DNA of 64,000 nt, taken from the IMG/VR virus record IMGVR_UViG_3300000301_000027. One strand, 5' to 3'. The stretch's first letter is position 1, and each line of letters begins with the position of its first letter. The notes beneath the pieces were generated by a model that was not told where the DNA came from, ran no database searches, and saw only the letters and a program-made list of their open reading frames with translations. The position numbers were made by a program, and so were the translations under genes. The stretch comes from an uncultured virus (IMG/VR IMGVR_UViG_3300000301_000027) (taxonomy: Duplodnaviria; Heunggongvirae; Uroviricota; Caudoviricetes; Crassvirales). Shown here piece after piece: positions 1-64,000 of the stretch.

Positions 1-1
1 T

Positions 2-124
2 TTCTATGGAGAGAATCCATTTGAATTAAAAGAATATAGAGTTGAAACAACAGAACCAGCTAAACCACAAGAAGTAGAAGAAAAGAAATCAGAAGATCCT
101 TATGATGATGACCTTCCATTTTAA
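2..124 (+). CDS. 3' end of a probable single-stranded DNA-binding protein (partial)
   Basis: Frame 2 reads FYGENPFELKEYRVETTEPAKPQEVEEKKSEDPYDDDLPF*. The acidic DDDLPF C-terminal tip is the SSB signature, and it sits directly before the primase. Confidence 0.7.
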   Translation, partial: FYGENPFELKEYRVETTEPAKPQEVEEKKSEDPYDDDLPF

Positions 125-131
125 TTAAGAT

Positions 132-1109
132 ATGTTAATTGGTAAACCTCTAACAACAGGAAATAAAGATGAATTAAAGTTATTATTTTATTTCTTAGGA
201 GAATTACCAGTAAACCAATTAATCAACAGTCCTCTAAGGGAAGATAATCATCCTTCATTTTATATCTATTATAATCCTGATGGTAAAATTTATTATAAAG
301 ATTTTGCTAGTGGAGAATATGGAGATATAGTTTCATTAATTCAATCTTTTTTACAATTGCCTACATTAGCAGATGCTTCAGAATTAATTTCTAAAACAGA
401 TGTAAAATGTGAATCTAACATAGCTTGTCATAGACTTAATTACACACCAAAAGAGAAAGAATATGAAATTAAAATAAGAATTAGAGATCTTAACTTAGAG
501 GATATTGAATATTGGGAAACTTATGGAGTAGATCATAAAAGATTAACAGAGTTTGGGGTTTATCCAATTTCACATTATTATTTAATTGATGGAGAATATA
601 ATCAATTATTTAGCACAAAAAACTATTGTTATGCATATACAGAATATTATTCAAAATTTTATTATAAAATATACAGACCTTATAGTAAAAGTGCTAAATG
701 GACTTCTAATATTCCTTTCAGTATTTGGGATTTGTATAATTATCTTCCTATTTCTGGAGATGTTGTAATTATTACCAAGAGTAGAAAAGATTCTATGTGT
801 ATCATGTCTAATAGTAGTTATCCTTCTGTTAACATGCAAAGTGAAACTGGAAATCCTTCTAAAGAAAAAATCAATGATCTAAAGAAAAGATTTAAAAATG
901 TTTTTATATGGTATGATAATGACTTTAACAAATCTCATAATTGGGGAAGAATGTATGCAACTGAGATTGCAAAGGCTCATAACTTAATTCAAGTAGAAAT
1001 ACCTGATGGTTTTGAATCTAAAGATATCTCAGACTTCCATAGAGACTTTGGAAAAACTGTTACTAAAGAATTAATTAAAGAACTTATAGAAAATGGAAAA
1101 CAAGTATAA
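132..1109 (+). CDS. DNA primase (DnaG-like, TOPRIM)
   Basis: N-terminal SPLREDNHPSF...YKDFASGEYGD (primase Zn-ribbon-like region); TOPRIM-like IITKSRKD and IWYDND; C-terminal SKDISDF. Confidence 0.8.
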   Translation: MLIGKPLTTGNKDELKLLFYFLGELPVNQLINSPLREDNHPSFYIYYNPDGKIYYKDFASGEYGDIVSLIQSFLQLPTLADASELISKTDVKCESNIACHRLNYTPKEKEYEIKIRIRDLNLEDIEYWETYGVDHKRLTEFGVYPISHYYLIDGEYNQLFSTKNYCYAYTEYYSKFYYKIYRPYSKSAKWTSNIPFSIWDLYNYLPISGDVVIITKSRKDSMCIMSNSSYPSVNMQSETGNPSKEKINDLKKRFKNVFIWYDNDFNKSHNWGRMYATEIAKAHNLIQVEIPDGFESKDISDFHRDFGKTVTKELIKELIENGKQV

Positions 1110-1491
1110 AGTAGCTGTATATGGCTCTTTAAGAAAAGGTCTATATAATCATTATTTAATGTCTCATTCAGACTTTATTAAAACTGTTAGTGTAGAAGTT
1201 CCTTTTAAAATGATTTCTATGTCAGATAGATTTCCTGCACTAATACCTACAAAAGAAAATAATCTGGTAGTATTTGAACTGTATAAAGTAGATGACAAGA
1301 CAGCAAGAAATTTAGATATCTTAGAAGGATATCCTGATTTTTATTCTAAAAAATATATTAAAATTGAAGATGAAGACTATCTAGTTTATTATCTATCTCC
1401 TCTAAAAATCACAAATGAGGAAGAAGTTGTAGAAAGTGGAGATTGGACAGAATTTAAACATAAAAAATTAACAACAAATAAAGAATCATGA
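1093..1491 (+). CDS. gamma-glutamylcyclotransferase (AIG2-like)
   Basis: VAVYGSLRKG..NH, LDILEGYP and SGDW motifs. Confidence 0.9.
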   Translation: MENKYKVAVYGSLRKGLYNHYLMSHSDFIKTVSVEVPFKMISMSDRFPALIPTKENNLVVFELYKVDDKTARNLDILEGYPDFYSKKYIKIEDEDYLVYYLSPLKITNEEEVVESGDWTEFKHKKLTTNKES

Positions 1492-2315
1492 GTTTATTTA
1501 CATCTCTTATTGGAGTTTCTAATAAAGGAACTAATTATTATTATACCACAAGTCCTTGTTGGGGAGCTTTTAATTCTTCTCTTAATACTAAATTACAAAC
1601 AGAAGGAGAAAAATATCAGTTTGTTAAAGTAGGAATCTTTACAGATGGATCTAAATTGTGTCTTACTAATAACACTTTCACTCCTAAGAAAGATATTGAA
1701 AAGTATCTTAATTATATAGGTGAAATTATGGGATGTCCATTAGTAAAATTTGAAGATTATCAAACTTGTTATGACTATCTTAGTTATGTTTCAAATAGCC
1801 CAGGTAAATTAGGAAAAGGAGATAAATCTGTAGAAAAATTTATGCAAGAGAATCCAAAAAATACTTTAAATGGATATCAAGCTACTTTTGATATTAGTAA
1901 ACCTATGGAATTATCTTCTGAAGCAAGACAATTGTTTTTCAAACATTTTGGACCATTAGTAAGAATGAGTTATGAAAACACATATAATCCTATTCTTAAT
2001 AGTGTATTGTCATATGAAAAGACTAAACCTTTTCTCTTTAAACATTTTACCTTCTATGAACTTTTATATTTAGAAGCTGTTAAAAGAGGTCTTACTGGAC
2101 AAGGTCATAGTGCTTGGCCTAGTAATTGTGAGCTTCCAAGTGTTAAAAGCTTTTTAGAAAAGATAAGAAGTAAATCTATACCTTCTAGTATGTTTAATTG
2201 TTTTCCTACAATTAAAAGTACAGAATTAGCTTCTGCAATATCAAAAATTATAGACATTAAAGATGAAAAGACTTTATTAGAAAAACTTTTACAATTAAAT
2301 ACATCTAAGAAATGA
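1488..2315 (+). CDS. hypothetical protein in ligase cluster
   Basis: 275 aa ORF with ATGA overlaps to both neighbours; no motif recognised. Confidence 0.75.
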   Translation: MSLFTSLIGVSNKGTNYYYTTSPCWGAFNSSLNTKLQTEGEKYQFVKVGIFTDGSKLCLTNNTFTPKKDIEKYLNYIGEIMGCPLVKFEDYQTCYDYLSYVSNSPGKLGKGDKSVEKFMQENPKNTLNGYQATFDISKPMELSSEARQLFFKHFGPLVRMSYENTYNPILNSVLSYEKTKPFLFKHFTFYELLYLEAVKRGLTGQGHSAWPSNCELPSVKSFLEKIRSKSIPSSMFNCFPTIKSTELASAISKIIDIKDEKTLLEKLLQLNTSKK

Positions 2316-2965
2316 ATATTTATATAGCTGGAGACTATGGAGTAGGATATGCTTACTGGTTATTAGATTTTTATAAAGAAGCTCTTATTACTAGAAATAT
2401 TCTAGAAGCAGATCTAATAATGTTTACTGGTGGAGCAGATATTAGTCCTTCAATATATGGAGAGAAAATCTCTAGAACATATTGGGGAAATGAACATAGA
2501 GATGAAGTTGAAATTGAAGTCTTTAAGAAAGCAGTAGAATTAGATATTCCAATGATAGGAATATGTAGAGGACTACAATTAATTTGTGGTTTATGTGGTG
2601 GAAGAGTTATTCAAGATGTATCTAATCATGCAGGATGCTCTCATAATATCACTTTTAAAGATGGATTTCAATGTATAACCACTTCTTTACATCATCAAAT
2701 GGTATATCCTTTTGAATTACCAGAAGAGAATTATAGTATTGAAGCATGGAGTACTGAAAGAAGATCTACTAAGTATATTAATGGAGAAGATAAACAATAT
2801 TCACAAATTCCTCCAGTAGAGCCTGAAGTAGTATTATTTTTTAAGGATAAACATAACAATCCTGTAAAATGTTTAGGAATCCAAGGACATCCTGAAATGA
2901 TGAAAATTGGAGAATTTCATAAAAGATTAATTCAACTTATTGACAATAACTTATTAAACAAATAA
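2312..2965 (+). CDS. class I glutamine amidotransferase / peptidase C26 family
   Basis: FTGGADISP, GICRGLQ (nucleophile Cys), SLHHQ, GIQGHPE (His-x-Glu). Confidence 0.9.
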   Translation: MNIYIAGDYGVGYAYWLLDFYKEALITRNILEADLIMFTGGADISPSIYGEKISRTYWGNEHRDEVEIEVFKKAVELDIPMIGICRGLQLICGLCGGRVIQDVSNHAGCSHNITFKDGFQCITTSLHHQMVYPFELPEENYSIEAWSTERRSTKYINGEDKQYSQIPPVEPEVVLFFKDKHNNPVKCLGIQGHPEMMKIGEFHKRLIQLIDNNLLNK

Positions 2966-2967
2966 AT

Positions 2968-3969
2968 ATGGAAAAAGTAGTAATTTTGTGTGGATTAGGT
3001 GGTAGACCTTCAATGAAAAAAGTATTTGCAGAAGTAAAAAATCCAAATGCTTATCTAGTTATTAGAAAAGAATTAAAAAAATCTAAAGGATATATCTTTG
3101 AAGTGTATTCTAAAGATGAGAATGGTAATATTACCATGACAAAAACAAAAAATATAGACTCTTTATTAGATAAATCTTATTTAATTAAATGGGGAAATAG
3201 AATTCAAGTAGATGATTTAGCAAATGTTGTTTACAATAATTCTTCTGCAGTAAAGAATGCTTCAGTAAAGAGTCTAGCTAGAAAACTATTTGCTGAGAAT
3301 GAGATTCCTTGTCCATTAAATATTACTCCTCAAACAGATAGATCTAAAGTTGTATTTCCTATTATTGGAAGACCTTTACTTCATCATCAAGGTAAAAACT
3401 TTTATACCTTTAATACATGGGAAGAATTTTTAGCTCACTATAATGTTCATAAGAAAGATCACTATTACAGTAATTTTGTTCCTAAAGTTAAAGAATTTAG
3501 AGCTCATGTAGCTCATAGTAAAATTCTTGCTTTGCTAGAGAAACCTAGACCAGAAGATCCTAATCAAATAGTATGGAATCATGCTCAAAATGCAGAAGCA
3601 TGGACAGTTATTGGATGGGATGATTATGGAAAATTTGGAAATCTTAGAGAAGGTGCTGAACCTACTAAGAATGATCTTAGATTAGCTAGAGCTTGTGTAG
3701 GAGCTCTTAATGCTTTAGGTCTAGATTTTGGAGCTGTTGATGTTGTAGTGACAGAAGATGGTTCTCCATATGTATTAGAAGTAAATACAGCACCTGAGTT
3801 ATCTAATTCAGAATATGCAGCAGCTAAATATTCTAAATATTTTGATTGGATTGGAGCTTATAATTTAGAAGAAGGTGAAGATAATAAAAGAGAACACTGG
3901 TCTTCTTTAGAATATATGAAATCTAAATCGTTCTCTTGGAAAGAAATTAATTTTAGACAGAATGACTAG
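2968..3969 (+). CDS. ATP-grasp amide/peptide ligase
   Basis: FPIIGRP, KEFRAHV, LGLDFGAVDV and YVLEVNTAP (ExN) motifs. Confidence 0.88.
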   Translation: MEKVVILCGLGGRPSMKKVFAEVKNPNAYLVIRKELKKSKGYIFEVYSKDENGNITMTKTKNIDSLLDKSYLIKWGNRIQVDDLANVVYNNSSAVKNASVKSLARKLFAENEIPCPLNITPQTDRSKVVFPIIGRPLLHHQGKNFYTFNTWEEFLAHYNVHKKDHYYSNFVPKVKEFRAHVAHSKILALLEKPRPEDPNQIVWNHAQNAEAWTVIGWDDYGKFGNLREGAEPTKNDLRLARACVGALNALGLDFGAVDVVVTEDGSPYVLEVNTAPELSNSEYAAAKYSKYFDWIGAYNLEEGEDNKREHWSSLEYMKSKSFSWKEINFRQND

Positions 3970-4531
3970 TAGAATTATTTCTTATAGAAATCCAGTAATA
4001 AGAAGAACAGATCTTACTATCTTTAACAGTTTAATGAGTTCAGATATTTATAATGGCCTGGATTTTATCCAGGTCTATACAAATACTTCTAGAGCTAAAA
4101 TGTTTTTAGATAAAGATTTATGTTCTCCTTTATATTATGATGGATATAAAGTAGAATATCTAAACTTAAAAGTCTATAATGAAGAAAATTGTGGACTAGA
4201 AGACACAATAAGTTTAGGTTATCATATGGATAATGGTGGTTTTAGAGGTATTACTAATATTGATAAATCTTTATTGACATATCAGCCTCAAATAGAATCA
4301 GATTATCCAGATTTAGTAGCTGTAGATACTAAGAGATTAAAGAAAGATTTTTGGAATCCTGATCCTAATTATTTGTATGATTTTATTTGTGCTTACAGAG
4401 AAATAGAAATTCCTTGGAAGACAGATCATAAAAAATTTTTATGTTATACAACATATGAAAAGGCAACAAAAGTTCTTATTGTAAGTGCAGTAAATCAAAA
4501 TTCACTTATTCAAAAAAAAAGATTAATTTAA
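3962..4531 (+). CDS. hypothetical protein in ligase cluster
   Basis: 189 aa ORF, tightly packed; no motif recognised. Confidence 0.7.
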   Translation: MTSRIISYRNPVIRRTDLTIFNSLMSSDIYNGLDFIQVYTNTSRAKMFLDKDLCSPLYYDGYKVEYLNLKVYNEENCGLEDTISLGYHMDNGGFRGITNIDKSLLTYQPQIESDYPDLVAVDTKRLKKDFWNPDPNYLYDFICAYREIEIPWKTDHKKFLCYTTYEKATKVLIVSAVNQNSLIQKKRLI

Positions 4532-4532
4532 T

Positions 4533-5261
4533 ATGATTTTACAAGTTATTAAAGATGTTACTCCTTTATCAGCAGGTATGTTAGTTTCTGCTTTGAGTAG
4601 CTATAAATATTCTCAAGAAGCAGATATCTTCAATAGATTAACACCAGCACCTTTTGAAGAATCTAATGTTGTTAGAGTAAATGGTGTATTAGGAACTCTT
4701 CCAAAAGAAAATTTTAAAATTTGTACAGTAGAAATTACTAATCCTAAACATCCTTTATATAAGAAAAAGTTTGAAATATCTTCTATTATTATGGAAGATC
4801 TTAAAACTAGACAGACATTTGAATTTGTAAATGGTGTATTAGATCCATTATCTATAAAAAGTATTGTGGTAGATACAGGAGAAAGAAAAGTAGAATTATC
4901 TCTTGGAGATACTCAACTGTCTTTTATAGATAATGCTGAAATTGAAGAATTTAAAGCTTATCTGAGATATGTTGATAGAGAAGAATATGAAGAAACTTTT
5001 TCTAGAGAATGGGAAGTTGATGAAGTTGAAACTGAAGAAGACAAAAAAATAGCAGAAGAAAAAGTCTATTTTTCTCATAATACAGGAACAATGACCTTGG
5101 AAAGAGGAACTTTATATGAAGTTATTAAATTCATGAAAAAGAATCCAGATACTGGAGAATATTTTGAAGTTCCTCAATCTCAAGCTAGAGTTGCTCAGGT
5201 ATTAGCAAATGGAAATTTTGTAACTGTATTATTAAGAAATGGTAATATTATAAGAAAATAA
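4533..5261 (+). CDS. hypothetical protein in ligase cluster
   Basis: 242 aa ORF with an acidic linker (EEYEETFSREWEVDEVETEEDKK); no motif recognised. Confidence 0.7.
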   Translation: MILQVIKDVTPLSAGMLVSALSSYKYSQEADIFNRLTPAPFEESNVVRVNGVLGTLPKENFKICTVEITNPKHPLYKKKFEISSIIMEDLKTRQTFEFVNGVLDPLSIKSIVVDTGERKVELSLGDTQLSFIDNAEIEEFKAYLRYVDREEYEETFSREWEVDEVETEEDKKIAEEKVYFSHNTGTMTLERGTLYEVIKFMKKNPDTGEYFEVPQSQARVAQVLANGNFVTVLLRNGNIIRK

Positions 5262-5263
5262 CT

Positions 5264-6082
5264 ATGAAAAGAGTAGATAACATCTTAATTGGATCTGATC
5301 CAGAATTATTTATTTATAACAAGGAAAAAGCAGAGATTGTCTCTGCAATTCCTTTTATTCCTGGTACTAAAGATGCTCCTTATATTATTGGAGATAAAGG
5401 ATATGCTTTACAAACAGATAATATTCTAGCAGAATTTAATATTCCTCCTACTAATAATGTGGATGAATTTGTAGAGCACATGAATTTTATGAAGGGATAT
5501 ATTCAAGAGCATCTAAATAAAATAGATCCTAATCTAACATTATTGCATCTACCTGATGGGCATTTAAAAGAAGAATATTTACAACATCCACAAGCAAAAG
5601 AAATTGGATGTTCTGAAGATTATAATGCTTGGAAAGATGGAGAAGTTAATCCTAAACCAGCAGAATTTCCAGGAACATTGAGGACTGTGGGAAATCATTT
5701 GCATATTGGATATAAAGATCCTGTAGCCCCATTAAATATTATTATTGTTAAATTTATGGATTTATTCTTGGGAGTTCCTTCAGTTATTATTGAACCTAAG
5801 AATGAAAGAAGACAAGTGTATGGTTCAGCTGGATCTTTTAGACATTGTAGATATGGCTGTGAATATAGATGTCTAAGTGGATATTTCTTAAAAGATGATA
5901 ATCTACTAAGATGGGCTTTTAACAATACTCTTAAAGCTATTGAAGAAGTAAATAAATATTTAAATGACGATGAAGATTCTATTGATATAGATGTATTAAA
6001 AGATGAAGTCTTAGCAGCTATGGGAGGGAATGTAGAAGTAGCTAAACAGCTTGTAGAGACATTTAATATTCCTATGGTTTAA
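5264..6082 (+). CDS. phiEco32-like COOH-NH2 ligase (glutamine synthetase-like fold)
   Basis: IGSDPELF, QTDNILAEFN, IGCSEDYNAW, LRTVGNHLHIG, RRQVYGSAGSFR, GCEYRCLS. Confidence 0.88.
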   Translation: MKRVDNILIGSDPELFIYNKEKAEIVSAIPFIPGTKDAPYIIGDKGYALQTDNILAEFNIPPTNNVDEFVEHMNFMKGYIQEHLNKIDPNLTLLHLPDGHLKEEYLQHPQAKEIGCSEDYNAWKDGEVNPKPAEFPGTLRTVGNHLHIGYKDPVAPLNIIIVKFMDLFLGVPSVIIEPKNERRQVYGSAGSFRHCRYGCEYRCLSGYFLKDDNLLRWAFNNTLKAIEEVNKYLNDDEDSIDIDVLKDEVLAAMGGNVEVAKQLVETFNIPMV

Positions 6083-6099
6083 TTATTTAAAATAATATT

Positions 6100-7905
6100 A
6101 TGTGTGGACTTTTTGGTTATATTGGAAAAGATAATAAAAGATTTAGTTGGGATAAGTTTAATGTATTAGGACTTTTTAATGATTCTAGAGGTGGTGATTC
6201 TTGTGGAAGGTATTTACTAGGAAGAGTTCTTTATGGAGTAGAAAAGAAAAAACTTTATAGAGATTTAGTTTTATCTTATAAAAATGATTCTGTATTTAAA
6301 GAAAATAATGTTATTTTAGGACATTGTAGAAAAGCTACTGTAGGTGCTCATACAGAAGCTAATGCTCAACCCATAGTATTATTAAATGAGTCTTTAACAG
6401 AAGAACAAAAAAAACAAGAAAATGTTTTAACAGAAGATTTTGTAATGATTCATAATGGTACACTCCAGAATCATGAAGAATTAGCTGAAAAATATGGTAT
6501 CAAAGAAGTTAAAGGTGAAACTGATTCTAAAATTCTAGCTAAACTAATTAAAAAAGAAGGATTTAAAATTTTAACTGAGTATATTGGTGCAGCTGCTATA
6601 GTTATCTATGATATTAGAGAAAAGATTTCTAGAGGAGTTGATGTAGTATATATTTTTAGAGGAAAATCTAAAGCTTATAATACTTCAACAACTTCAGATG
6701 AAGAGAGACCTTTATTCTTGTATAATATAGATGAAGATTATTGGTATTTTTCTTCTTTAGAAGAATCTTTATCATTTATAGATAATTCTAAAGATGATCA
6801 AGAAAGAATAGCTCCTGTAGAACCTAATACTTTATATAAATTTGAAAATGGAAAACTTGTAAGTAAAACTGTTTATGATAGGAGTGAATGTCTTCAAAAG
6901 AAACCTTATGTATCCACTTATACTGGTCATAATCACAATGCTTATGGTTATGATTATTATAGCTATGGAAGTTATGGTGATGATTATGAAGATGATGTTG
7001 CTTATCAGAGATATTGGGAGAGAGAGTCTGAAAGATATAAAGAAGGAAACAAATTTAATACTAAGAAGGAAGATAAAAAGATTCCAGTCTTAATAGTTCC
7101 TTCTAAAACTAAATTTGATAGTGAGATAGATAAAGAATCTATTGAAGGTTACTATGGTAGTGAGAATATTTTATTTGCTAGAGGTAGATATTATCATAAG
7201 AAACAATTGCTCAATGGAGTATATAATTGTTCTCCTTTAGGATATATAACTACAAGTAAATATACTTCAGATTATAAAGTATACTTTATAGATGGCATAT
7301 TAATTCAACCTCACTGCTATAAAATGGCTAAACAAATTTATACCTTAGCAGGAAAAGTGGATTATATTACACCTTTTATTGCTGAAAATTATCTATATCT
7401 TGGAGAAAATACTTTCACTAGATATGATTTCAAAGTAAAAGGAAATTTATTTGCAACAGGCTATTTTAGTCCTTTATTTTCTTTAAGAAGTTATTTAATT
7501 GTTAAGGGAATTAGTGAGTTTTATAAGACTTTTAATACTAAAACAGATTTTAATGATATAGGTAAGAGAGTAGGTATGTCTCATTACTATAGTAACTTTA
7601 AATCTGATAGAACAAATGTTTTAAGCCCTGAATGGTTAAGAACTGATTTCACTCAACTTTCTGAATGCATCAAATATTATTTTGGTGATCTAGGTTGGGA
7701 AGAATTTAAAGAAGATGTAAGGAACAATTATGAGGATTTATTATTAGCTCTTAAAAGTGAAAGTTTTGCACAAGTAGAACTATGTAAACAACAATTTTTG
7801 ATGTTTGTACAAGAATGTCAAGATATTACTGGACTTTCTGAATTAATTAAAGAAGCTAATGAGATTATTGAAGATTTAACTAAAACTTTAAAAACACTGG
7901 ATTAA
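6100..7905 (+). CDS. class II (Ntn) glutamine amidotransferase with long C-terminal extension
   Basis: Starts MCGLFG; RGGDSCG, GHCRKAT, NAQP, HNGTL, ETDS motifs. Confidence 0.9.
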   Translation: MCGLFGYIGKDNKRFSWDKFNVLGLFNDSRGGDSCGRYLLGRVLYGVEKKKLYRDLVLSYKNDSVFKENNVILGHCRKATVGAHTEANAQPIVLLNESLTEEQKKQENVLTEDFVMIHNGTLQNHEELAEKYGIKEVKGETDSKILAKLIKKEGFKILTEYIGAAAIVIYDIREKISRGVDVVYIFRGKSKAYNTSTTSDEERPLFLYNIDEDYWYFSSLEESLSFIDNSKDDQERIAPVEPNTLYKFENGKLVSKTVYDRSECLQKKPYVSTYTGHNHNAYGYDYYSYGSYGDDYEDDVAYQRYWERESERYKEGNKFNTKKEDKKIPVLIVPSKTKFDSEIDKESIEGYYGSENILFARGRYYHKKQLLNGVYNCSPLGYITTSKYTSDYKVYFIDGILIQPHCYKMAKQIYTLAGKVDYITPFIAENYLYLGENTFTRYDFKVKGNLFATGYFSPLFSLRSYLIVKGISEFYKTFNTKTDFNDIGKRVGMSHYYSNFKSDRTNVLSPEWLRTDFTQLSECIKYYFGDLGWEEFKEDVRNNYEDLLLALKSESFAQVELCKQQFLMFVQECQDITGLSELIKEANEIIEDLTKTLKTLD

Positions 7906-7908
7906 TTT

Positions 7909-9312
7909 ATGTTTAAGAATGATTTTAATGTAGAAGAAGGAGTTCATTATTTCTTAACTCAAACTATTCCTAGCAGAAGTAGATATTATGATTTTGAGAA
8001 AAAAGAGATGAGAAGTTCTACTTCTTCTCTTATTTATGGAGTTGTAAATTTTGATCCTCTATCTCAACAATATTATTATGGTTTCTTTAGTAGAAATTAT
8101 GCTAAAAATGCTTCTGTAAACATTCTTGGAAATGTAGTTACTGTATTTGATAAGAAATATTTAAAAGAAGTTGGATTCTTGGAAGTTGATCCAGATATGT
8201 ATATTAATCCTAGAAATCTTATCTATAAATACAATGGAAAGCTTAGTATGGGAAATAATTATAAAACTCCTGTTAGAAATAGAAAATATCCTTGGATGTA
8301 TGATTTCCCAAATAACTATGGAGCTAAATTTCTATTAGAAGATTTCAAAAGGTATCATTCTGACAATTACATTCCTAATAGAACAGGTGTATTTAACCTT
8401 CCAAATTTAACTTTTGGAATAGAATTTGAAACATGCTCTGGTTCAGTACCACAATCAGAATGTGCTAGATTAGGATTAATTCCTTTAAAAGATGGTTCAA
8501 TAACAGGAAATGAATATGCTACAATTCCTCATAAAGGAAAAGAAGGTATTGGTGTATTACATGAAACTTGTGAAGTATTACAAAATTATTGTGATATTGA
8601 CCATCAATGTTCTCTTCATGTTCATGTAGGAGTTCCTTCTGTAGATAAAACACTTGTTGTTGCAGCATATCATTATTTTAAAACACTAGAACCTCAAATT
8701 TTAGCTATGTTTCCATCAATGATGACTGCATCCTCTTCTTTTAAGAAAGGAGATAAAGATTATTGTAAAAAACTAGCTAAAGATGCTTGTGATAGTAGTC
8801 TTAGTGTAGAAAAACAATTTAAACAGTTGTTTGATATGTATGCTGAAACTCCAGGTTTTGTATTTGAAGGATTTGGAGCAAATCATCCACATGATAGAGA
8901 TGGTAATAGAAAATGGGAAGTGCATGCTAGATATAAATGGGTAAATCTTGTAAATCTTATTTTTGGTGGAGCAAAAACTATTGAATTTAGAATTCATACT
9001 CCAACATTAAATAAGTATAAAGTAATTCCTTGGGTATATATCTGTAATTCCCTAGTGTGGTACTTGCTAAATCATCAGGATGAAATTATTAAGAGTGCTT
9101 CTAGTGGTAAACTTAAAGTAGATCTTAATTCTATTATTTCTAGTTGTTTTAAGGATAGAACAATTGTAGATTATTTATTGTCTTATATTTCCCATAGAAT
9201 GAAAATGGTAGTACAACATCAAATATCTTATGGAGATAGATGTGGCTTCATTGAAATTCTAGATGATTTTGCTTATTCATATGATTATAAACAAATTGAA
9301 TTAGTAAAATAA
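7909..9312 (+). CDS. putative amidoligase (COOH-NH2 ligase superfamily)
   Basis: TFGIEFE, DGSITGNEY, CSLHVHVG, RYKWVNL, KTIEFRIH. Confidence 0.85.
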   Translation: MFKNDFNVEEGVHYFLTQTIPSRSRYYDFEKKEMRSSTSSLIYGVVNFDPLSQQYYYGFFSRNYAKNASVNILGNVVTVFDKKYLKEVGFLEVDPDMYINPRNLIYKYNGKLSMGNNYKTPVRNRKYPWMYDFPNNYGAKFLLEDFKRYHSDNYIPNRTGVFNLPNLTFGIEFETCSGSVPQSECARLGLIPLKDGSITGNEYATIPHKGKEGIGVLHETCEVLQNYCDIDHQCSLHVHVGVPSVDKTLVVAAYHYFKTLEPQILAMFPSMMTASSSFKKGDKDYCKKLAKDACDSSLSVEKQFKQLFDMYAETPGFVFEGFGANHPHDRDGNRKWEVHARYKWVNLVNLIFGGAKTIEFRIHTPTLNKYKVIPWVYICNSLVWYLLNHQDEIIKSASSGKLKVDLNSIISSCFKDRTIVDYLLSYISHRMKMVVQHQISYGDRCGFIEILDDFAYSYDYKQIELVK

Positions 9313-13905: not shown

Positions 13906-13937
13906 TTTGGAACATCCATTATTATTTTGTATCTTTG
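13906..13937 (+). promoter_or_regulatory. Bacteroidota-type primary-sigma promoter (-33 TTTG / -7 TAnnTTTG) for the HNH gene
   Basis: TTTG at 13906-13909, 20 nt spacer, TATCTTTG at 13930-13937. Confidence 0.75.
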
Positions 13938-13962
13938 TATAGATTTTGAAAAAATTAAAACT

Positions 13963-14682
13963 ATGCTAAGAGAAGATACAATTAAAAAATTTGATGAACT
14001 AAATTTAGTTGATTTGTATAATAGTGGAGAAACATTTACTTCATTAAGTAAAAAATATCATATATGGTATGGAACAGCTAAAGAATATTTAATTCAACAT
14101 GGAGTTAAAATTAGAGAAGATAAAAAGAGACCAGAACTTAGAGAAACTCCTCCAGTAGGACAAAAATTTGGACAATGGACTGTCATCTCAGATAAAATTA
14201 AGATAGGACATGATAGAAGTATAAACTGGGAAGTACAATGTGATTGTGGAAGAAAAACATTTAGAACTGCTTCTGCATTAAAAGCAGGATTAACTAAAAG
14301 ATGTAAGTCTTGTGCTAAAAGACCATTTCTTAGAAATGGTACACTTATAAATACTGTAGCTGCAAGTGCTTATAAAAGAGTGATAAATGGATTAAATAAA
14401 AGAAAAAAATTAAAAGGAATGGAATTTAATATTACTCCTGAATTTATTGACAATCTTTTATCTAAAAATCATTATTGTGCATTATCTGGGATAGATTTAT
14501 CTTTTGATGCTTCAAAACAAATGAGTTGTCAAAATTTATCTATAGATAGAATAGATTCTAATAAAGGATATACTATGGATAATATTCAACTAGTAGATAA
14601 AAGAATTAATTTAATGAAAGGAACATTATCTAATGAAGAATTTATTGATCTTTGTAAAAAGGTTGCAGAACATAACAAATAA
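13963..14682 (+). CDS. free-standing HNH/His-Me-finger homing endonuclease-like protein
   Basis: GQKFGQWTV..WEVQCDCG..CKSC N-terminal region; CALSG..SIDRIDSNKGYTMDNIQLV..INLMK. ATG at 13963 is used because the TTG at 13927 lies within the promoter. Confidence 0.8.
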   Translation: MLREDTIKKFDELNLVDLYNSGETFTSLSKKYHIWYGTAKEYLIQHGVKIREDKKRPELRETPPVGQKFGQWTVISDKIKIGHDRSINWEVQCDCGRKTFRTASALKAGLTKRCKSCAKRPFLRNGTLINTVAASAYKRVINGLNKRKKLKGMEFNITPEFIDNLLSKNHYCALSGIDLSFDASKQMSCQNLSIDRIDSNKGYTMDNIQLVDKRINLMKGTLSNEEFIDLCKKVAEHNK

Positions 14683-19139: not shown

Positions 19140-19395
19140 AAAGTTTGCTTTGACACTTTTAAAAAAGGCAAAAGATTTAAAAAAATTTAATCCAGATCTT
19201 AGAGAAGGTCAAACTATTATAATTCAATTATGTAGAATGAATCAAAAATATTTTTTAGATTTGCCTAATGAATATAATTGTTTTGAAGATGATTCTAAGA
19301 TACCTGCTTTATTAGAATATATATCAACTCTTAAAAAGAAAAAGAATGAAGATAATAGATCAAAGTGTGGAGCTAATAGAAAGAGGAAAAAGTAG
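19129..19395 (+). CDS. hypothetical protein
   Basis: 88 aa ORF; NPDLREGQ resembles a small phage protein motif. Confidence 0.6.
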   Translation: MNPRKFALTLLKKAKDLKKFNPDLREGQTIIIQLCRMNQKYFLDLPNEYNCFEDDSKIPALLEYISTLKKKKNEDNRSKCGANRKRKK

Positions 19396-45955: not shown

Positions 45956-45956
45956 A

Positions 45957-47172: not shown

Positions 47173-47174
47173 AA

Positions 47175-48523: not shown

Positions 48524-49248
48524 ATTCTATTTTCTTTAATTTCTTTTATTGTCTTTCCTAATATCTTCATTTCTTCAAATGAAAAATTATTTCCTCTTGC
48601 TATATTACAAGTATAACAACAAGGAACCACATTATCATAAGTATGTCCTTTATTATTGTCTATTCTATCACATCCCAAATTATTAGTATCTCCACAATAA
48701 ATACATTTACTTTTTAAAATGTTTTCTATAAACCATTCTCTATCTAAATTGAATTGTAAATCTTTTTTCCAGTCTTTTAGTTTATAAGAAGATAACATTT
48801 TAGAAGCTTTCTTCTTTAAATCTGCTTCTTTAAGTTCTTTTGGATTCATCAAATTTCTTTTTGAAAGTCTCTTTTTTCCAAATAAAATTTCTTCTATAGT
48901 ATAGTTTTTGTTGTTATGATACCTAGTCCTTATTCCCACAACACTTTTTTCTAAAATATCTGCCCATTCTTGAATTGTGTGAGTTTCATTATTATAAGTT
49001 ATTTTTATAATATTATTTTTTAAAGTAGCAACTTCTTCTTCTGGGAGGAATATGAAATTATTTTTTGAAAAAGGTTTTGTTTTATCTTTTCTAACTAATC
49101 TATAATTAGGAATATAATATTGGATAGTATCATTAAAGAAATTATTATAATATTTCCATTCTTCACTAAAGCCTATTTTTTGTCCTTTAGCAGTATATCT
49201 AAAACCTCTCCAAATATTAAAAAGAGGATGTTTTCTTATAGCTTCCAT
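48520..49248 (-). CDS. free-standing HNH/His-Me-finger homing endonuclease-like protein
   Basis: HPLFNIWRG, ITYNNETHTIQEWA, CIYCG..DRIDNNKGHTYDNVVPCCYTCN. Confidence 0.8.
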   Translation of the reverse strand: MEAIRKHPLFNIWRGFRYTAKGQKIGFSEEWKYYNNFFNDTIQYYIPNYRLVRKDKTKPFSKNNFIFLPEEEVATLKNNIIKITYNNETHTIQEWADILEKSVVGIRTRYHNNKNYTIEEILFGKKRLSKRNLMNPKELKEADLKKKASKMLSSYKLKDWKKDLQFNLDREWFIENILKSKCIYCGDTNNLGCDRIDNNKGHTYDNVVPCCYTCNIARGNNFSFEEMKILGKTIKEIKENRI

Positions 49249-53326: not shown

Positions 53327-56300
53327 CTAACTTCTAGTAAAAGGTCCTATTGCTATATAATGAAAAACTCTACTACTTCCATCTCCATTAATTATTGTAA
53401 ATCCAGAACTTGTATAGTCAGTAAATCCCCAGTTTTCTTGACCACCAGTACTAGTATTATCCCAGGATCCAGTCACTGACCAGACAGTATCAGTAAATGA
53501 AACTGGGAAATTTATTGCTCTTGTTGAATTTCCTTGAACTGTGAAATATCCCCATTGTATCATTATATCTCCAATTCTTTGATATCCATCTGGATTATGA
53601 TATTGTGTATTAGAGCCTAATAAATAATATCTATTTTCAGGAGTTCCATAGAAAGGTCTTCCAGTATATTCCATTGCTAAAAATTTTTTTGATATAGCTG
53701 AATATAAAAACATTCCTACTTCAGAATTATATCCTATTGATCCTCTAGGAGTTGTATTTGTTCCATCAGTATTAGAATCATCAAAGTACATCTCTATAGT
53801 CCTGCTAGTACCTGTAGAAACTCCTGTTCTTTGTAGTCTTAATAAAACTTGGTCACTGTTTCTTATATATCCTCCTGTAGTTGGTACAAATTTATCTAAT
53901 AGACTATCTGAAGTTAGAAATCCTTGTCCATTTACCCATTCTTGTGTAGTATAACCACTATCATTAGTTAATCTACTAATATTATCATTAGCTTTTACAT
54001 AAGAACTGGCTGCTGTTCCTCCTAATTGAGTTGAATTTGTTGCTGTTGCTGCATTACCAGTAATAGAGACTCCTAAAGTAGTAGAACATTGAGTGATTGT
54101 TCCTGCATTCATGTATACTGGAACTGTAGCAGAACCTACTGTTGCAGAACATGCTGTTGGTGTTCCAGAACTTAAATATATAGGTTTAGCTGATCCTCCT
54201 ATTGTAGTAGAGCCTAATTTAGATGCTGCAGAGGCTGTTGATGCATTCCCAGAGATGTTAATATCCCAAGTTCCACTAGCACCTGTTCCTGTTTTAAGTG
54301 GATATTGAGAATTAGACCATGTTTGAGTTGCATATTCAGTAATATCTGTTTCAGTTAATATTTTCTTATAATCTGTTCTTGTACCTACATAAGGTTTTCC
54401 ATCATCTTTAACAAATAAATAAGTATTAGAAGGGAAATTATATATAAAAGCTCCTATATTATCATAATAACCAACTGCCCCTTTTGAAGTAGAACTTCTT
54501 AAAAAATGAATAACACTTTCTGTAGAACTACTTGAATCTAATATTAATAAATTAGAACCACTAGACTTGATACTTAATTTTCCAGTAAGATTTCCACCTG
54601 TTAATGGGAGATAACTACCTAAATCTGTTACAGTTGCTAATTTTCTTAAACTATTAGTATTCGCTCCATAATAAGCACCATCTGATTTTACAGCCAATGT
54701 TTCTCCTGTAACATTCTGAAGAAAAGAACCCAAACTCTCATAGAAACCAACAGTTCCTTTATTAACACCTCCCCTGCTAAAATCAATAGATGATTGACTT
54801 GCATGAGTTGAGTTTATAGTTAATGGATTTGATTTGGAAGAAGATATTGTTCCTCCACTTAGAGGAAGATAATTACCTATATCAGATGTAGTAGCTAATT
54901 TAATCCAATTTCCAAATGATGTCCATTTAGTTCTATAATAAAGTTCAGTTCTAGTAGAACTTGCCCATAATTGAATTCCTTCATCATCTCCTTGAACACT
55001 AAATAATAATCCTTTAGTTGTTGGAGTTTCAGCAACATTCTGTATTTCAGAATAAAATATTTGATTAGCTGGTAAAGTAGAAGGATTACTACTAGATTGT
55101 GTTTGTATTATATTAACATCTTTATTTGTTAATAACCTATTCCACTCTCCATATGTTGTCTCATTATAAGGCATATGCCTATAATAAAGACCATTTTTAC
55201 TAGCTTCTGCACCACCTGAAAACCATAATTGATTTGCCCAATGAGCATTTCTTGAATTTACTTGTAATACAGTTCCATAATTAGTAGGGCCTCCTGCACT
55301 AGATGCATCATAAGCATCTAATACTTGTAGATATCCACCATAATTTCTATTTGGTGCTAAATCATTTGTCCAAATGTTAGCTTTAAAAGCAATTCCATTA
55401 GAGTCTAAGATTATTTGTCCTGTTGCTGTATCTCCAGTTTTCTTAAGAAAATTACTTGTACTACTATTAATCTTTGATACAACCCAATTAGTATCAGCTA
55501 AAAATTTCCAACCAGTAGTACTATTTCCTGAAGAAGGTATATATTGTCTATAAGCTATTCCTGTGCCATCAATATCTGCAGCCAATTGAAAAGCATTATC
55601 ATTTACCCAGAAATAAGTTAAGAACATTCCATCATTAACATTCTTACCTGTATTAGAATCAGTTCCTGGAGAACCTGCTGCATCTACTGTAAATGATGAT
55701 ATATATAAAACATCATTGCCAGTTTTTGCTAAGTTTAGATTTGTCTGTCTAAAATTGCTAGTAAATCCAGCAGCTGATTTAATAACTCCTTTAGAATATA
55801 TCCCATTAGTAGGTATATTAGGAGCACTATTAGCATAACCATCTGAAACACATAAACTTCCTACATAAACAGGACAAGCTGCATTTTGAGAAGTATAAAA
55901 TCCAATACCTATATGATCAGAATCTCCACTTTGATTATCTATAAATGACCCAGCATCTCCAAAAGTTACTTTATTTGTATGTAAGTTGTTTATATATGCA
56001 GCATTAAAACTCTGATCTGAAGTCCCAAGTAAACCTGATCCTCCACTAGCTAATGTAACTTGAGAATGAGGCAATAACCCATTAGTTCCTGCTTTAATAT
56101 AAGTAAAATACTGTCCATCTTTATTTGTTAATGTTGCATGATTATATGTATTTGTAGTATATGTTACTGGATTAGTTAGGTTATATTTGTCCCAGATTTC
56201 ATAATAAGTTCCATTATGTCCAATAGCCCACTTATCTCCTGCATATCCAAATACCCCTAGCTGAGAGGCTTGTGCATTTATAGCTTGTATAATACAATGA

Positions 56301-59839: not shown

Positions 59840-59851
59840 AGTATTTATATT

Positions 59852-62800
59852 TTAATCTTTATGCCAATTAACATTACCACTTCTTCCTAAGAAAAACCAT
59901 TTTCCATTTGTTTTAATTACAGAAACATTAGCTCCTCCATCAGTCATTTCCAAATGATTAGTTGTAATATCATATAAACTTCCAGCATTATATTGACAGA
60001 TATTGTATATAATAAGATTATTATTACTATTATCACAATCTACAAAAGTAATAATTTGCCCTTCTGTTCCAGAACTATTATTTAAAGTGATTGATTGTGT
60101 AGAACCTCCTGTCCATAAAAAAATAGATTGGTAATTAAATGCTGAAGCTTGACCTGAAGCAACACTAGAATATCCAAAAGTATTTCCTAAATTAAGATGA
60201 TTTCTAATATATAAGTCATTTCCATTAATTCTAACTTGATGTTTAGTAGAACCACCAGATTTAAAGTTTCCAGCAAAAAATAATTCACTATTTAATGAAG
60301 TTGTTCCATTATCTTTTCTTACATTAATACCAAAAGAATCTGCTGATACTAAAGAAGGATCCAAATACTGTCCTATAGAGACATATCCAACAAATGGTGA
60401 TTTAGACAATACTCTAATACCATTATTATCTAATGTTAAGCTTCCAAAAGTTGTTCCATTAGCAACAGTAAGAGTTCCACTAAAAGAACCATTAACAGCA
60501 TTTATTTCTCCACTAAAGACACCATTTTTAGCAGTAAGATTACCATTAGGATCTACATAAAAATTGCCATCTTGTTGTCCAAATGAACCATCAGAATTAA
60601 TTAGAAGGTTACCAATTTTACCTCCTGTTGCAATGATTGATCCAGTGGCTTTTATATTTCCACTAAAATAGCCATTATCAGCCCATATATCTCCATGGAA
60701 ATATCCCCCATAACATAACATTTGACCATCTTCTCTAATTACAAATGTGGCTCCTTGGGGACTTTGAGACCTAGGATCATATTCCCAAAACTGTTGTCTT
60801 TTTTCTGGAGTTTTATCTCCATCTAAAAATTCTTGATATAAATTAGACCATTCTTGAGAAGATTCATAATTACCTCCAGAATAGAATCTTACTGTTTGAG
60901 GTTCATATTCTCCAGGTAAATTTTTACCTCCATATATACCTGCTTTTTCATCAGTTAATTCATATTCAAAATCATTTTTCTTTTTAGCATGACCTAATCT
61001 AATCCAAGTGGTTAAGAATAATCCTCCATCTGTAACAGATACTCCTCCTAATGCATCTTCTAGATACCAATTTTCTTCATTAATCTTTCTCCAAGTAATA
61101 ACCTTCAAAAAATTAATTCCTGAATCTTCACAATAAATTCTTATCTTACATGAAAGATATGTTTTATTAGTATTAAAAACTGTTGGGTATATTTGTCCTT
61201 TTTCTGAAATTCCAACTTCAAGACCTTCATCAGGTTCAGCTATTATAGAGTAATAATTATTTCCAGGAGTAGTACCTCCTTGTAGTCTATAAATAAGTTC
61301 TTTAGAACCTTTTAAAACTGTATATGTAGTTGATACTGATAATGCTAATTTATTAGGATCTAAGTAATCTGGATTTATGGTATCTTTAGTTCCAGGATCT
61401 ACTAGTATATCATGAGATTCTTTATCTGCTATTACAGTATAAGAATCTTCTCCTTTATCTCCTGTTAATTTAATAGGTGTTGACCACTGTTCTCCATCTT
61501 TTACTTCTCCAGTAATAGGATTTTTTAATATTTTAGTCATCCATACATATAAGTTACCAGATGGTTGGGGTGGATTATCATACCAATTAGTACCAGGACT
61601 TTTTCCATTAGGATATTGTATAGGAGGAATATTTTCACTTAAAGCATATTTAAAATCTATATACCATCCATCAACTCCAACAATTTTTACAGGATCACCC
61701 CATTCACCTGAAGAAGCACTAGGTGCTACTTTTTGAGACATCCATATAACATTATCTGTAGTATCAGTATGCCATCCATTAGTAGTTCCATTACCAGTAG
61801 GCTTATTGGGCTTTAATTCAGAATCATGATAAGTTATATACACATTCCATCCATTTTCCCCATTAGCACCATCAGTTCCATCTGAACCATCAGTAACCAT
61901 TAAAGTCCATGCTGTACCATTATAAATATAAACTTTACCATTATCTATATCTCTATATACCCAATTAATTTCAGGATTAGAAGGTGGATTTTTAAATTCT
62001 CCTTTCCATATAATACTTAATCCATCAGTACCATTTTTCCCATTAATACCATCAATAGTCATCTGATACCAAGAACCACTTTGATATACATAACTTTTAC
62101 CATCAGTGGTGTTTCTATATGCCCAACCATTTTGAGGATCATTTGGATGAGAATCAAATTCTCCCTTCCATACTATAGAAGTACCATCTGTACCATCTAC
62201 ACCATCAGCTCCATTAATACCATTAATACCATCAGTTATTTTAACAATAGTATGAGTATCATAATAATCTCCTACATCTACTCTATAAGTAACATAAGTA
62301 TTACCATTGCTCCATCCCATCTTAGGGTCATTAGGATTAATAGTTAAAGAATTAGTAGTATTTTCTATTACTGTCCAATTGGTGTTTTCAGTTTTATATC
62401 TCCATATATATTGAGGATCAAGAATATTTTGTGTTAAAGCTATTATATTAATAACATTAGGAATAGGATCTCCTTTAAAGTCATCTTTATATTTAAATAA
62501 TTGATCTCCTTGTATTGTAACACTTTTTGCAGGTGTTCCAATAGCTGTTTGTTTTAATAATTCAGAAATAGAAGGTTCTCTATTATTGCATAGATCTAAT
62601 CTCTGACCCCAAAAATGTACTTCAGTACCTATTCCTAAAGCACTGCCTTGATAAGCTCTAAACATTTGAACTTCATCAGTGTTTTTAAATTTAAAAGTTC
62701 TAAATTTAATTGTATCAGAAGCTTTTCTGCCTGTTTTAGGATCATATATACCAGCATCAAATTTTTCTCCTGTATTGTCCTCTGAACTATTAATATAACC

Positions 62801-64000
62801 TACTAATAAATACCATTTATTTAATTCTGGTAAATCACCTCCCCAGAATAAACCATCAGAAGTTTGCCCTGAATATAATGAAGTATTAGGATCACATCCA
62901 AACAAGATAGTACCATCTCTCTGCATCTGTTTTACCCATATAGAATATCTATAAGTAAGATGATGATAAATAGGTATATTTGGAACATAAAAACCTCCAT
63001 CTGTATCACCATCAGCAGTAGAAATACATTTCCATACTACATCTGGCATATTAAATGGAGTAGGTAATATCTCCCTTTTATTATTAGCATTAGTTCCATA
63101 TTGTAAATACTTACTATAATCTCCTGATCCTTCATTCCATAAGAATCTAAAGAACATGTTAGTAGTATATTCATCAACTAATAATGGAGGAGTCCATTCT
63201 CCTGAAGGCTCTCCAGTTAGATTATTTATATTAAATGCTTGCCATAATAATCCATACCATTCATCAAATGTGTTAGGATTAACATTCCATCCTGCTGGAC
63301 TAGCTCCTCTAGGTTGGATAGGTTCAAGCATATCTCTAGTATATATAATAACACTATTACTACCATCAATAATATCTACAATGGTGATTCTTCCTTTAGC
63401 AATTACCTCTCCTAAAGAGTTTTTCAATCTAACTTCAAAATTAGATTTAGAATCAACATCATCTGGTGTTATTAAAATAGTCTTATTTATTCTAGAGAAA
63501 GTGGGAATTATTTGTCCATCTTTATCATATTGAATCCAATCATAAATATATGTTGATCCATCTTCATCAAGCTCTTCACCATTTCTCCATACTTCAGCTT
63601 CTATTGTAATAGTTCCTGTTTTATTTTTAAAGATAGTTCCTTCAGGAGTATTAAAAGCTATTTGTAAAGGATCTTGTTGGTCTAAGAATGAAGCTGTGGC
63701 ATATACAGATTGATTATAAGTAATAGATTTTGAATCTAAATCTGTAATAACACATTTAAATGTTGCAAAATTTAATACAGTAGATTCTGGAATAATAATT
63801 TCATTAGTAGTATATCCAGTAACTCCAAAATTATTTACTTCATCAATATAAGCCCATCCTATTCCTCCACTACTATTATAATAAGGATTATATATTCTAG
63901 TACCACTAGGAACATCTTGTTTTAATGTTTCTGTTAATACTAAGGTTGTAGAAGAATTTACTGTAGCTACTACATAATCATATCCTAAGATTCTAATATT
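59852..64000 (-). CDS. large tail fibre/spike-type structural protein (5' partial)
   Basis: I translated 64000-63428 and the frame has no stops (NIRILGYDY...FEVRLKNSLG), so the TTG start at 63427 in the track is internal. It has collagen-like GxDG triplets and beta-helix-like repeats. Confidence 0.8.
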   Translation of the reverse strand, partial: NIRILGYDYVVATVNSSTTLVLTETLKQDVPSGTRIYNPYYNSSGGIGWAYIDEVNNFGVTGYTTNEIIIPESTVLNFATFKCVITDLDSKSITYNQSVYATASFLDQQDPLQIAFNTPEGTIFKNKTGTITIEAEVWRNGEELDEDGSTYIYDWIQYDKDGQIIPTFSRINKTILITPDDVDSKSNFEVRLKNSLGEVIAKGRITIVDIIDGSNSVIIYTRDMLEPIQPRGASPAGWNVNPNTFDEWYGLLWQAFNINNLTGEPSGEWTPPLLVDEYTTNMFFRFLWNEGSGDYSKYLQYGTNANNKREILPTPFNMPDVVWKCISTADGDTDGGFYVPNIPIYHHLTYRYSIWVKQMQRDGTILFGCDPNTSLYSGQTSDGLFWGGDLPELNKWYLLVGYINSSEDNTGEKFDAGIYDPKTGRKASDTIKFRTFKFKNTDEVQMFRAYQGSALGIGTEVHFWGQRLDLCNNREPSISELLKQTAIGTPAKSVTIQGDQLFKYKDDFKGDPIPNVINIIALTQNILDPQYIWRYKTENTNWTVIENTTNSLTINPNDPKMGWSNGNTYVTYRVDVGDYYDTHTIVKITDGINGINGADGVDGTDGTSIVWKGEFDSHPNDPQNGWAYRNTTDGKSYVYQSGSWYQMTIDGINGKNGTDGLSIIWKGEFKNPPSNPEINWVYRDIDNGKVYIYNGTAWTLMVTDGSDGTDGANGENGWNVYITYHDSELKPNKPTGNGTTNGWHTDTTDNVIWMSQKVAPSASSGEWGDPVKIVGVDGWYIDFKYALSENIPPIQYPNGKSPGTNWYDNPPQPSGNLYVWMTKILKNPITGEVKDGEQWSTPIKLTGDKGEDSYTVIADKESHDILVDPGTKDTINPDYLDPNKLALSVSTTYTVLKGSKELIYRLQGGTTPGNNYYSIIAEPDEGLEVGISEKGQIYPTVFNTNKTYLSCKIRIYCEDSGINFLKVITWRKINEENWYLEDALGGVSVTDGGLFLTTWIRLGHAKKKNDFEYELTDEKAGIYGGKNLPGEYEPQTVRFYSGGNYESSQEWSNLYQEFLDGDKTPEKRQQFWEYDPRSQSPQGATFVIREDGQMLCYGGYFHGDIWADNGYFSGNIKATGSIIATGGKIGNLLINSDGSFGQQDGNFYVDPNGNLTAKNGVFSGEINAVNGSFSGTLTVANGTTFGSLTLDNNGIRVLSKSPFVGYVSIGQYLDPSLVSADSFGINVRKDNGTTSLNSELFFAGNFKSGGSTKHQVRINGNDLYIRNHLNLGNTFGYSSVASGQASAFNYQSIFLWTGGSTQSITLNNSSGTEGQIITFVDCDNSNNNLIIYNICQYNAGSLYDITTNHLEMTDGGANVSVIKTNGKWFFLGRSGNVNWHKD

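Follow-up and report, generated by a model that had tools for sequence, protein, structure and literature searches.

Near-absence of the CG dinucleotide in a lineage of crAss-like phages and its relation to restriction-site avoidance

Among the viruses of the human gut, the crAss-like phages are the most abundant. The present study concerns the near-absence of the dinucleotide CG from 64,000 nucleotides of one of them, the uncultured virus IMGVR_UViG_3300000301_000027 (this whole stretch of DNA is referred to as the window), and from the genomes of its relatives. The closest described phenomenon is restriction-site avoidance, which Rusinov et al. reportedly described in 2018 for non-temperate phages lacking methyltransferases. 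The window is similar to it in that a short word is selected away by silent changes in a phage of virulent type without a methylase, and in the relatives the loss of CG is accompanied by losses of GATC, CTAG, GGCC, and many 6-bp palindromes. There are also differences: The word avoided in the window comprises only two bases and is purged in all 16 flanking contexts, and the clade to which the window belongs spares other sites, with the exception of CTTAAG, GGATCC, and GCTAGC. The trait is best classed with restriction-site avoidance, as an extreme variant that operates at the level of a dinucleotide. We know of no enzyme that matches a purge of the bare CG.

Further described systems share single aspects with the window. 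In Mycoplasma penetrans, under-representation of CpG has been tied to the CpG-specific methyltransferase M.MpeI (Wojciechowski et al. 2013, as summarized in a passage of PMC11282364). Equally to this case, as far as that summary goes, CG is specifically under-represented in a low-G+C genome of prokaryotic type, whereas the window clade possesses no methylase, does not spare arginine CGN codons, and has relatives whose host-group chromosomes are CG-normal. The Introduction of the same paper ascribes to Forni and co-workers the rule that the CpG content of phages resembles that of their hosts; in the form given there, it does not hold for crAss001, DAC17, tikkala, and frurule, which exhibit CG observed/expected ratios (O/E) of 0.02-0.07 versus 0.76-1.11 in chromosomes of the host genus or family. 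Methylation-dependent restriction of modified CG is listed, in the relevant section of PMC12707154, for Mrr/McrBC of E. coli, for the MspJI family, and for PsuGI (BB5mCGD). A phage without CG can be neither marked nor cut by systems of the kind listed there; as we read it, however, this route would work only if at least one of the phage's hosts possessed a CG methylase. In vertebrate viruses, finally, CpG is suppressed under sensing by ZAP or TLR9 (PMC11282364, in the part concerned with these sensors). Following that account, viral CG is likewise stripped by selection and not by mutation, because a host factor reads it, but the sensors in question are vertebrate proteins and ZAP reads RNA. 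A literature search, from which subscription journals and supplements were excluded, found no report of CG loss in crAss-like phages.

Within the window, an exact count over all 64,000 bases yields 4 CG versus 1231 expected from base composition (O/E 0.003; G+C content 27.9%), situated at precisely the positions (3929, 5968, 28612, and 54662) given in a first-pass annotation that had been made from the letters alone, and far below the O/E of 0.3 which that annotation had named as cut-off. Three runs of N (269 bases in total), in which CG is unreadable, are included in this length. The remaining 15 dinucleotides exhibit O/E values of 0.70-1.41. GC, the mirror word of equal composition, is found 1309 times (O/E 1.06), and GATC (229 copies) and GGCC (11 copies) are also present, as had been noted. 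TG (1.00) and CA (1.03) show no matching excess, such that the sign of deamination proposed in the same annotation is absent. The loss is even along the length of the window and over both transcription blocks, concerns coding and intergenic DNA alike, and extends to all 16 NCGN contexts.

The same pattern is found in the closest relatives of the window, i.e., in the following genomes of its clade:

G002: complete IMG/VR genome with terminal repeats, 100,426 bp, 92-99% identical to the window where aligned (about 98%); 9 CG, O/E 0.005
G005: 62.6 kb; 0 CG, O/E 0
G006: 68.1 kb; 0 CG, O/E 0
G004 (sister genome): 70.6 kb; 150 CG, O/E 0.097

Furthermore, eight of nine DNA-polymerase loci carry only 0-2 CG per 22 kb, and among 80 portal loci from IMG/VR the O/E ranges from 0.002 to 0.40, with 58 loci below 0.10. 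Concerning named phages, the following values were obtained:

Strongly purged relatives: DAC17 0.021, crAss001 0.028, tikkala 0.032, cr106_1 0.033, cr126_1 0.038, frurule 0.071
Weaker purge: cr85_1 0.106, cr111_1 0.23, cr128_1 0.24, Dulem virus 41 0.38, phi14:2 0.46, cr108_1 0.51
Outside the family: crAss002 0.69, cr50_1 0.54, B40-8 1.19
Other Bacteroidota phages: B124-14 1.22, Flavobacterium phage 11b 0.78, Cellulophaga phi38:1 0.68, Riemerella RAP44 0.83

The mapping across Crassvirales that the first-pass annotation had suggested thus finds the purge in the clade and, to a varying degree, in many relatives, and on a tree of portal proteins the O/E shifts several times among close relatives. 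Outside Crassvirales, the Flavobacterium psychrophilum phage Fpv1 (KU599877.1), which possesses a distantly crAss-like portal (24.5% identical), reaches 0.080. The lack of CG is real and is inherited throughout a whole crAss-like lineage.

Codon usage cannot explain the loss, which agrees with what had been argued from the letters. When synonymous codons were permuted within each gene, such that proteins and codon usage were kept, 200 shuffles of the window contained 209 ± 12 CG (minimum 172) versus the 4 actually present; the depletion therefore survives shuffling. Junctions between a codon ending in C and a codon starting with G provide 2 CG versus 226 expected, and all 735 arginine codons of the window are AGR, with not a single CGN. 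Intergenic DNA is purged as well, with 0 CG in the window versus about 29 expected, and 0 versus 120.6 expected in the pooled non-coding DNA of G002, G005, and G006, where GC occurs 117 times.

The four residual CG of the window are all synonymous and are situated as follows:

3929..3930, + strand: TCG serine codon, context TCGT; private to the window, with TCAT in all of G002, G004, G005, and G006
5968..5969, + strand: junction of a GAC and a GAT codon, context ACGA, in the gene of a COOH-NH2 ligase
28612..28613, - strand: junction of a GGC and a GAT codon in the gene of a giant protein of 3610 amino acids; private to the window, with TCAC in G002 and TCTC in G004 and G005
54662..54663, - strand: GCG alanine codon in the gene of a variable structural protein of 1901 amino acids; region unalignable with the relatives

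Three of these sites can be aligned, and among them are two private single transitions and one CG (5968) common only to G002, with ATGA in G004, G005, and G006; the latter CG is also present in five of the nine DNA-polymerase loci. Judging from these alignments, the alignable CG are young, the one at 3929 being a synonymous A-to-G change, and the pattern looks like a balance between mutation and selection. Nearly all of the few CG of the window and G002 are found in the contexts RCGA and TCGY.

A comparison of the window with G002 reveals 1282 differences in 54,411 aligned sites. Of 2606 sites followed by G, none exhibits a C/T difference, and of 2690 sites preceded by C, 5 exhibit an A/G difference, versus 1.0-2.1% in other contexts; between G005 and G006 the corresponding counts are 0 of 2244 and 0 of 2433. 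Since CG-creating transitions are missing even at about 2% divergence, the constraint is acting now.

As an alternative, the cause might be purely mutational: CG, methylated or deaminated by an enzyme of the host or the phage, would decay to TG or CA faster than it is made anew, with no selection involved. Methylation followed by deamination had been among the explanations offered in the first-pass annotation. In its favor, TG and CA reach 1.09-1.26 in the purged crown relatives and in Fpv1, versus 0.94-1.06 in weakly purged ones, and of 101 CG sites of G004 that align with G002, 48 read CA or TG in the latter. Such an excess is, however, presumably the silent route forced by the genetic code at junction and NCG sites, and would then not separate mutation from selection; the share of NCA among NCN codons is scarcely higher (0.32-0.37 vs. 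0.23-0.36). In the clade, TG and CA remain at 0.97-1.06. Moreover, G002 exhibits a transversion (CT or AG) at 25 of these 101 sites. The polarized CG sites of G004 follow an ordinary spectrum of about two transitions per transversion, which does not discriminate between the two causes. Deamination of methylated C in arginine CGN codons yields Cys, Trp, stop, His, or Gln, whereas the silent path to AGR is a C-to-A transversion. Deamination can thus not clear these codons silently, yet they are fully gone from the clade (0 of 1136 arginine codons in G002, 0 of 734 and 0 of 842 in two clade relatives), which argues for selection and not decay. Elsewhere, crAss001 uses CGN for 6 of its 1349 arginine codons, cr108_1 for 580 of 1339, and phi14:2 for 226 of 1052. 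Genomes with an intermediate purge do not spare them either: Among 16 genomes at O/E 0.02-0.39, CG at codon positions 1-2 is depleted at least as much as CG at junctions in all 16, and is the most depleted class, or nearly tied, in 13. Genes for C5 and N4/N6 methyltransferases (PF00145 and PF01555) were found in none of 24 related genomes, and the zero CG in 62-68 kb would need a loss several thousand-fold above gain. A mutational cause is accordingly very improbable; the purge is held by purifying selection that continues to act at the level of the DNA, and not by deamination of methyl-cytosine. Ongoing selection against CG implies that CG in the DNA of such phages is read by something.

The purge also includes genes that arrived recently. 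Two HNH endonuclease genes of the window are free of CG:

13927..14682, + strand: HNH endonuclease gene (PHROGs match); the region 13848-14679 has no counterpart in G002
48520..49248, - strand: second HNH endonuclease gene (PHROGs match); absent from G002

As both are missing from a genome of 98% identity, they are recent insertions. Relatives of the second gene (48-58% amino acid identity) are situated in CG-poor phage contigs with O/E values of 0.048, 0.115, and 0.288. In G002, the gene of the large terminase (69945-75254) encodes 1769 amino acids with intein splicing, LAGLIDADG, and Hom_end domains, and probably holds two inteins. The CG-free newcomers, together with inteins in a genome of 9 CG, show that the gene pool feeding the clade is itself purged, which corresponds to what had been supposed for the lineage. 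The further statement that the usually mobile genes are free of CG holds for both HNH genes, but not for the 1901-amino-acid gene, a probable tail fiber, which contains the CG at 54662.

Concerning the hosts, those of the window clade are probably Bacteroidota. Eight pieces of 20 kb from chromosomes of Bacteroides sp., B. xylanisolvens, Phocaeicola vulgatus, and Segatella copri, which are not the strains hosting crAss001 or DAC17, all exhibit a CG O/E of 0.76-1.11. Host chromosomes equally free of CG, by which the signal would have reflected a shared mutational bias, are thus not found in the host group of the relatives.

In the relatives, the loss of CG belongs with the anti-restriction behavior of virulent phages that lack a methylase. 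In crAss001, GATC is found once versus 301 expected, CTAG twice versus 320, and GGCC not at all versus 60, and 20 of the 6-bp palindromes are avoided at an observed number of at most 0.2 times the expected one (22 at a cut-off of 0.3). Fpv1 shows the same syndrome (GATC 1 vs. 217 expected, CTAG 14 vs. 194, 17 purged 6-bp palindromes). Over 18 genomes outside the clade, CG O/E correlates with the avoidance of 6-bp palindromes that contain no CG (Spearman 0.78, P = 1.3e-4, uncorrected for phylogeny). The restriction-site purge in crAss001, G010, G014, cr106_1, and Fpv1 is in itself unusually broad, with about 15-23 different 6-bp palindromes lost; such a breadth is absent from the window clade. 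A preference for symmetric sites is apparent in G004, where CG has returned in non-palindromic contexts (ACGA/TCGT 64, GCGA/TCGC 33), whereas palindromic NCGN amount to 7 versus 43.5 expected (ACGT 0 vs. 11.3, CCGG 0 vs. 3.8, GCGC 0 vs. 3.9, TCGA 7 vs. 24.5). This pattern cannot arise from independent half-site preferences. Symmetric CG sites are thus under the heaviest pressure within the clade, but in the line of the window itself the pressure removes all CG.

The trait is best read as an avoidance of restriction sites in which the avoided site has shrunk to a dinucleotide. As to its agent, we tentatively favor, at a little under an even chance, a restriction-like activity on the side of the phage's hosts with CG as its effective target. 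The target of this activity would be either unmethylated CG as such or CG that a host methylase has marked, and a phage without a DNA methyltransferase of its own would escape it by offering no target. Every CG can be removed with no change of protein, and selection has cleared codons, junctions, spacers, and newly arrived mobile genes in this way. The host defense against CG that had been offered among the explanations in the first-pass annotation fits best, the enzyme itself being inferred.

Several observations weigh against a host-side activity. The window clade exhibits the strongest purge of CG, yet without general avoidance of palindromes: In the window, GATC (229 vs. 246 expected), CTAG (276 vs. 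290), GGCC (11 vs. 9.8), and AGCT are found at normal numbers, the 6-bp palindromes without CG reach an overall O/E of 0.83-0.89 in the clade, and only CTTAAG (4 vs. 30), GGATCC (3 vs. 10), and GCTAGC (2 vs. 7.6) are low. With the clade added, the above correlation drops to 0.25. Non-palindromic NCGN are purged in the window along with the palindromic ones, unlike the specific sites of 4-8 bp, mostly palindromes, of usual restriction-site avoidance; to our knowledge, a bare CG of 2 bp is not the site of any Type II enzyme. CG is retained by further phages that infect these host genera (B40-8 1.19, B124-14 1.22, crAss002 0.69), although B40-8 carries two annotated methylase genes, and hosts with normal CG would need a protective methylation of their chromosomes. 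No CG-specific nuclease or CG methylase of a host has been identified, a host CG methylase not having been looked for.

A further point of this kind is provided by islands of normal CG density, 2-4 kb in length, which several CG-poor crown relatives carry downstream of the portal gene. One of them, with 61-68 CG in 2.2 kb, is common to G011, G009, and cr128_1 at 89-95% identity (in G011 at 23.7-25.9 kb, with 68 CG), and similar islands are found at the loci L074, L120, L110, L064, and L041. They are probably recently exchanged tail-spike modules, and their presence with normal CG indicates that CG is tolerated in at least some present hosts. On the branch of G011, the island has changed at 7 of 128 CG-site positions versus 79 of 639 other C/G positions, such that CG is not lost faster; this also speaks against the hypermutability of CG that a mutational cause would entail, the comparison being a weak one, as divergence of the island could predate its transfer and have taken place in CG-normal donors.

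An agent made by the phage itself, which had likewise been proposed in the first-pass annotation, is another candidate: A CG-directed nuclease or DNA-damaging enzyme encoded by the phage might destroy the DNA of hosts or competitors and spare its own CG-free genome, with no need of a methylase. The trait follows the phage lineage more than the host phylum, in that it is found in crAss-like phages and Fpv1 (0.080) and not in five other Bacteroidota phages (0.68-1.22), and many early genes belong to no known family (31 of the 37 open reading frames (ORFs) in the non-window part of G002 are without a Pfam match). However, no gene was found that co-occurs with the loss of CG in both purged clades, an association for which a search had been recommended. 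The ORFs of 22 genomes formed 827 clusters, not one of which is common to the purged clades and missing from weakly purged genomes. Small genes similar to gp58 (a zinc ribbon) and gp63 of crAss001 are partial candidates, present in only 7 genomes and with one independent contrast (found in G010 and G011, not in their sisters cr128_1, G008, and G009); a six-frame search with hidden Markov models (HMMs) found them absent from the window clade, from G013 (0.070), and from cr85_1 (0.106). Profile-profile comparison of 24 clade-specific with 16 purged-crown-specific clusters gave a head-fiber match only, PADLOC recognized nothing restriction-like among 78 proteins, and tblastn of 90 ORFs of G002 against six genomes returned nothing specific; small, fast-evolving genes could slip past cluster, HMM, and profile comparisons alike. 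The HNH genes, being recent insertions, were rejected as cause of a clade-wide trait. Likewise rejected were a protein that G002 had seemed to share with crAss001 alone, but that 19 of 21 records turned out to contain, and the HKD nuclease and the uracil-DNA glycosylase, which unpurged relatives carry or which the window clade lacks altogether. We therefore consider a nuclease of the phage unlikely.

In a wider formulation, which leaves aside who encodes it, some Bacteroidota hosts or some crAss-like phages would own an undescribed DNA-targeting activity whose recognition element is just the CG step; we regard this as possible, though somewhat doubtful. The complete lack of CG over 62-68 kb, the inclusion of cultured model phages among the purged ones, and the maintenance of the trait at 2% divergence together point to a strong, specific, and as yet unnamed pressure. 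If an activity reading CG indeed exists, whole phage lineages have rewritten genomes of 100 kb to hold no CG, and the cultured phages crAss001 and DAC17 with their Bacteroides hosts constitute a system in which the reader could be sought. CG-free DNA is furthermore a natural template for vectors entering Bacteroides, and CG content could help to predict hosts, or exposure to defense, of uncultured crAss-like phages.

Selection might also act with no nuclease at all, if CG bears an intrinsic cost to the phage machinery, i.e., to the injected giant RNA polymerase, to replication, to packaging, or to DNA mechanics. Most phages that exhibit the trait are of a single type, distinguished by an unusual virion RNA polymerase and by cargo proteins, the purge of the clade is uncoupled from other signs of restriction pressure, and weak selection per site might suffice, as every CG can be removed silently. 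Against such a cost, the same core machinery is found in relatives that retain between a quarter and two thirds of the CG expected (cr108_1 0.51, phi14:2 0.46, crAss002 0.69, cr50_1 0.54, cr128_1 0.24), the portal tree records several changes of the trait between closely related phages, and the islands of normal CG are carried with no sign of erosion. An intrinsic cost is, in our judgement, distinctly unlikely as the cause.

Evasion of the animal host of a gut phage, by which CG would be lost under TLR9 sensing of unmethylated CpG DNA, appears extremely improbable. CpG-free DNA does not stimulate TLR9, for which reason the DNA of the purged phages should be a poor stimulant, and many of the purged relatives are of fecal origin. 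Other crAss-like phages from feces nevertheless retain CG (cr108_1 0.51, cr128_1 0.24, crAss002 0.69, cr50_1 0.54), and selection of this kind would be expected to have very little force in a virus of bacteria. A bacterial counterpart of the CG sensors ZAP and TLR9 is not known to us.

Matches to PHROGs and Pfam identify the window as the replication, virion-RNA-polymerase, and tail portion of a crAss-like phage. Apart from the giant protein of 3610 amino acids, it contains genes for PolA, primase, class II RNR, ThyX, and dUTPase, and the following groups of genes:

38006..47858, - strand: crAss-type cargo and tail ring genes (Pfam crAss_CARG1, CrAss_Ring_1, CrAss_Ring_2)
17664..21021, + strand: dUTPase, metallophosphoesterase, ThyX, and dNMP kinase genes (Pfam PF00692, PF02511, PF21448)
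1093..9312, + strand: genes of a GGACT cyclotransferase, two GATase, an ATP-grasp protein, the COOH-NH2 ligase, and an amidoligase, with three ORFs without assigned role; adjoins the primase gene

The cargo and tail ring genes assign the phage to Crassvirales. Its portal shares 54-55% identity with the portals of crAss001 and cr108_1, and its DNA polymerase 38% with that of cr108_1; the portal tree (92 of 95 sequences) places the branch of the clade between Cellulophaga phage phi14:2 and the rest of the Asinivirinae. On the basis of these proteins, the phage appears to stand near the Steigviridae, its closest named phages; a megablast search of the window against named phages gave no match. 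Integrase and repressor families are not found among the PHROGs or Pfam matches, and the phage is taken as non-temperate. A dispersed long motif was sought in the window and not found.

Two of these gene groups were considered with regard to DNA modification. The nucleotide genes appear to constitute an ordinary supply of dTMP without cytosine-replacement enzymes, and a base replacement by hydroxymethyl-C of the T4 type was rejected on gene content, as the thymidylate-synthase-like gene is ThyX (PF02511), beside dUTPase and dNMP kinase. The amidoligase/GATase cluster was rejected as a modification-related cause as well, since it is present in the unpurged phages phi14:2 (O/E 0.46) and cr108_1 (0.51) and absent from the purged crAss001 (0.028). 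In place of the cluster, crAss001 possesses ThiF-like and metalloprotease genes. Between the genes of the amidoligase and RusA (9312-9313 in the window), all other compared Asinivirinae possess the uracil-DNA glycosylase gene that the whole window clade lacks; clusters of the HKD nuclease and of a Sak4-like ATPase are likewise absent from the clade.

The three runs of N in the window (13131-13218, 22192-22282, and 40109-40198; 88-91 bases each) correspond to just 2-9 bases in G002 and look like scaffold gaps of arbitrary length; owing to them, the RNR gene and two structural genes each appear as a pair of ORFs. tRNA genes are found in none of G002, G004, G005, and G006 or the window, such that a test for a purge of structural RNA is empty in the clade. 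In crAss001, at least 23 annotated tRNA genes are situated in the first 6 kb, and its leftover CG are concentrated there.

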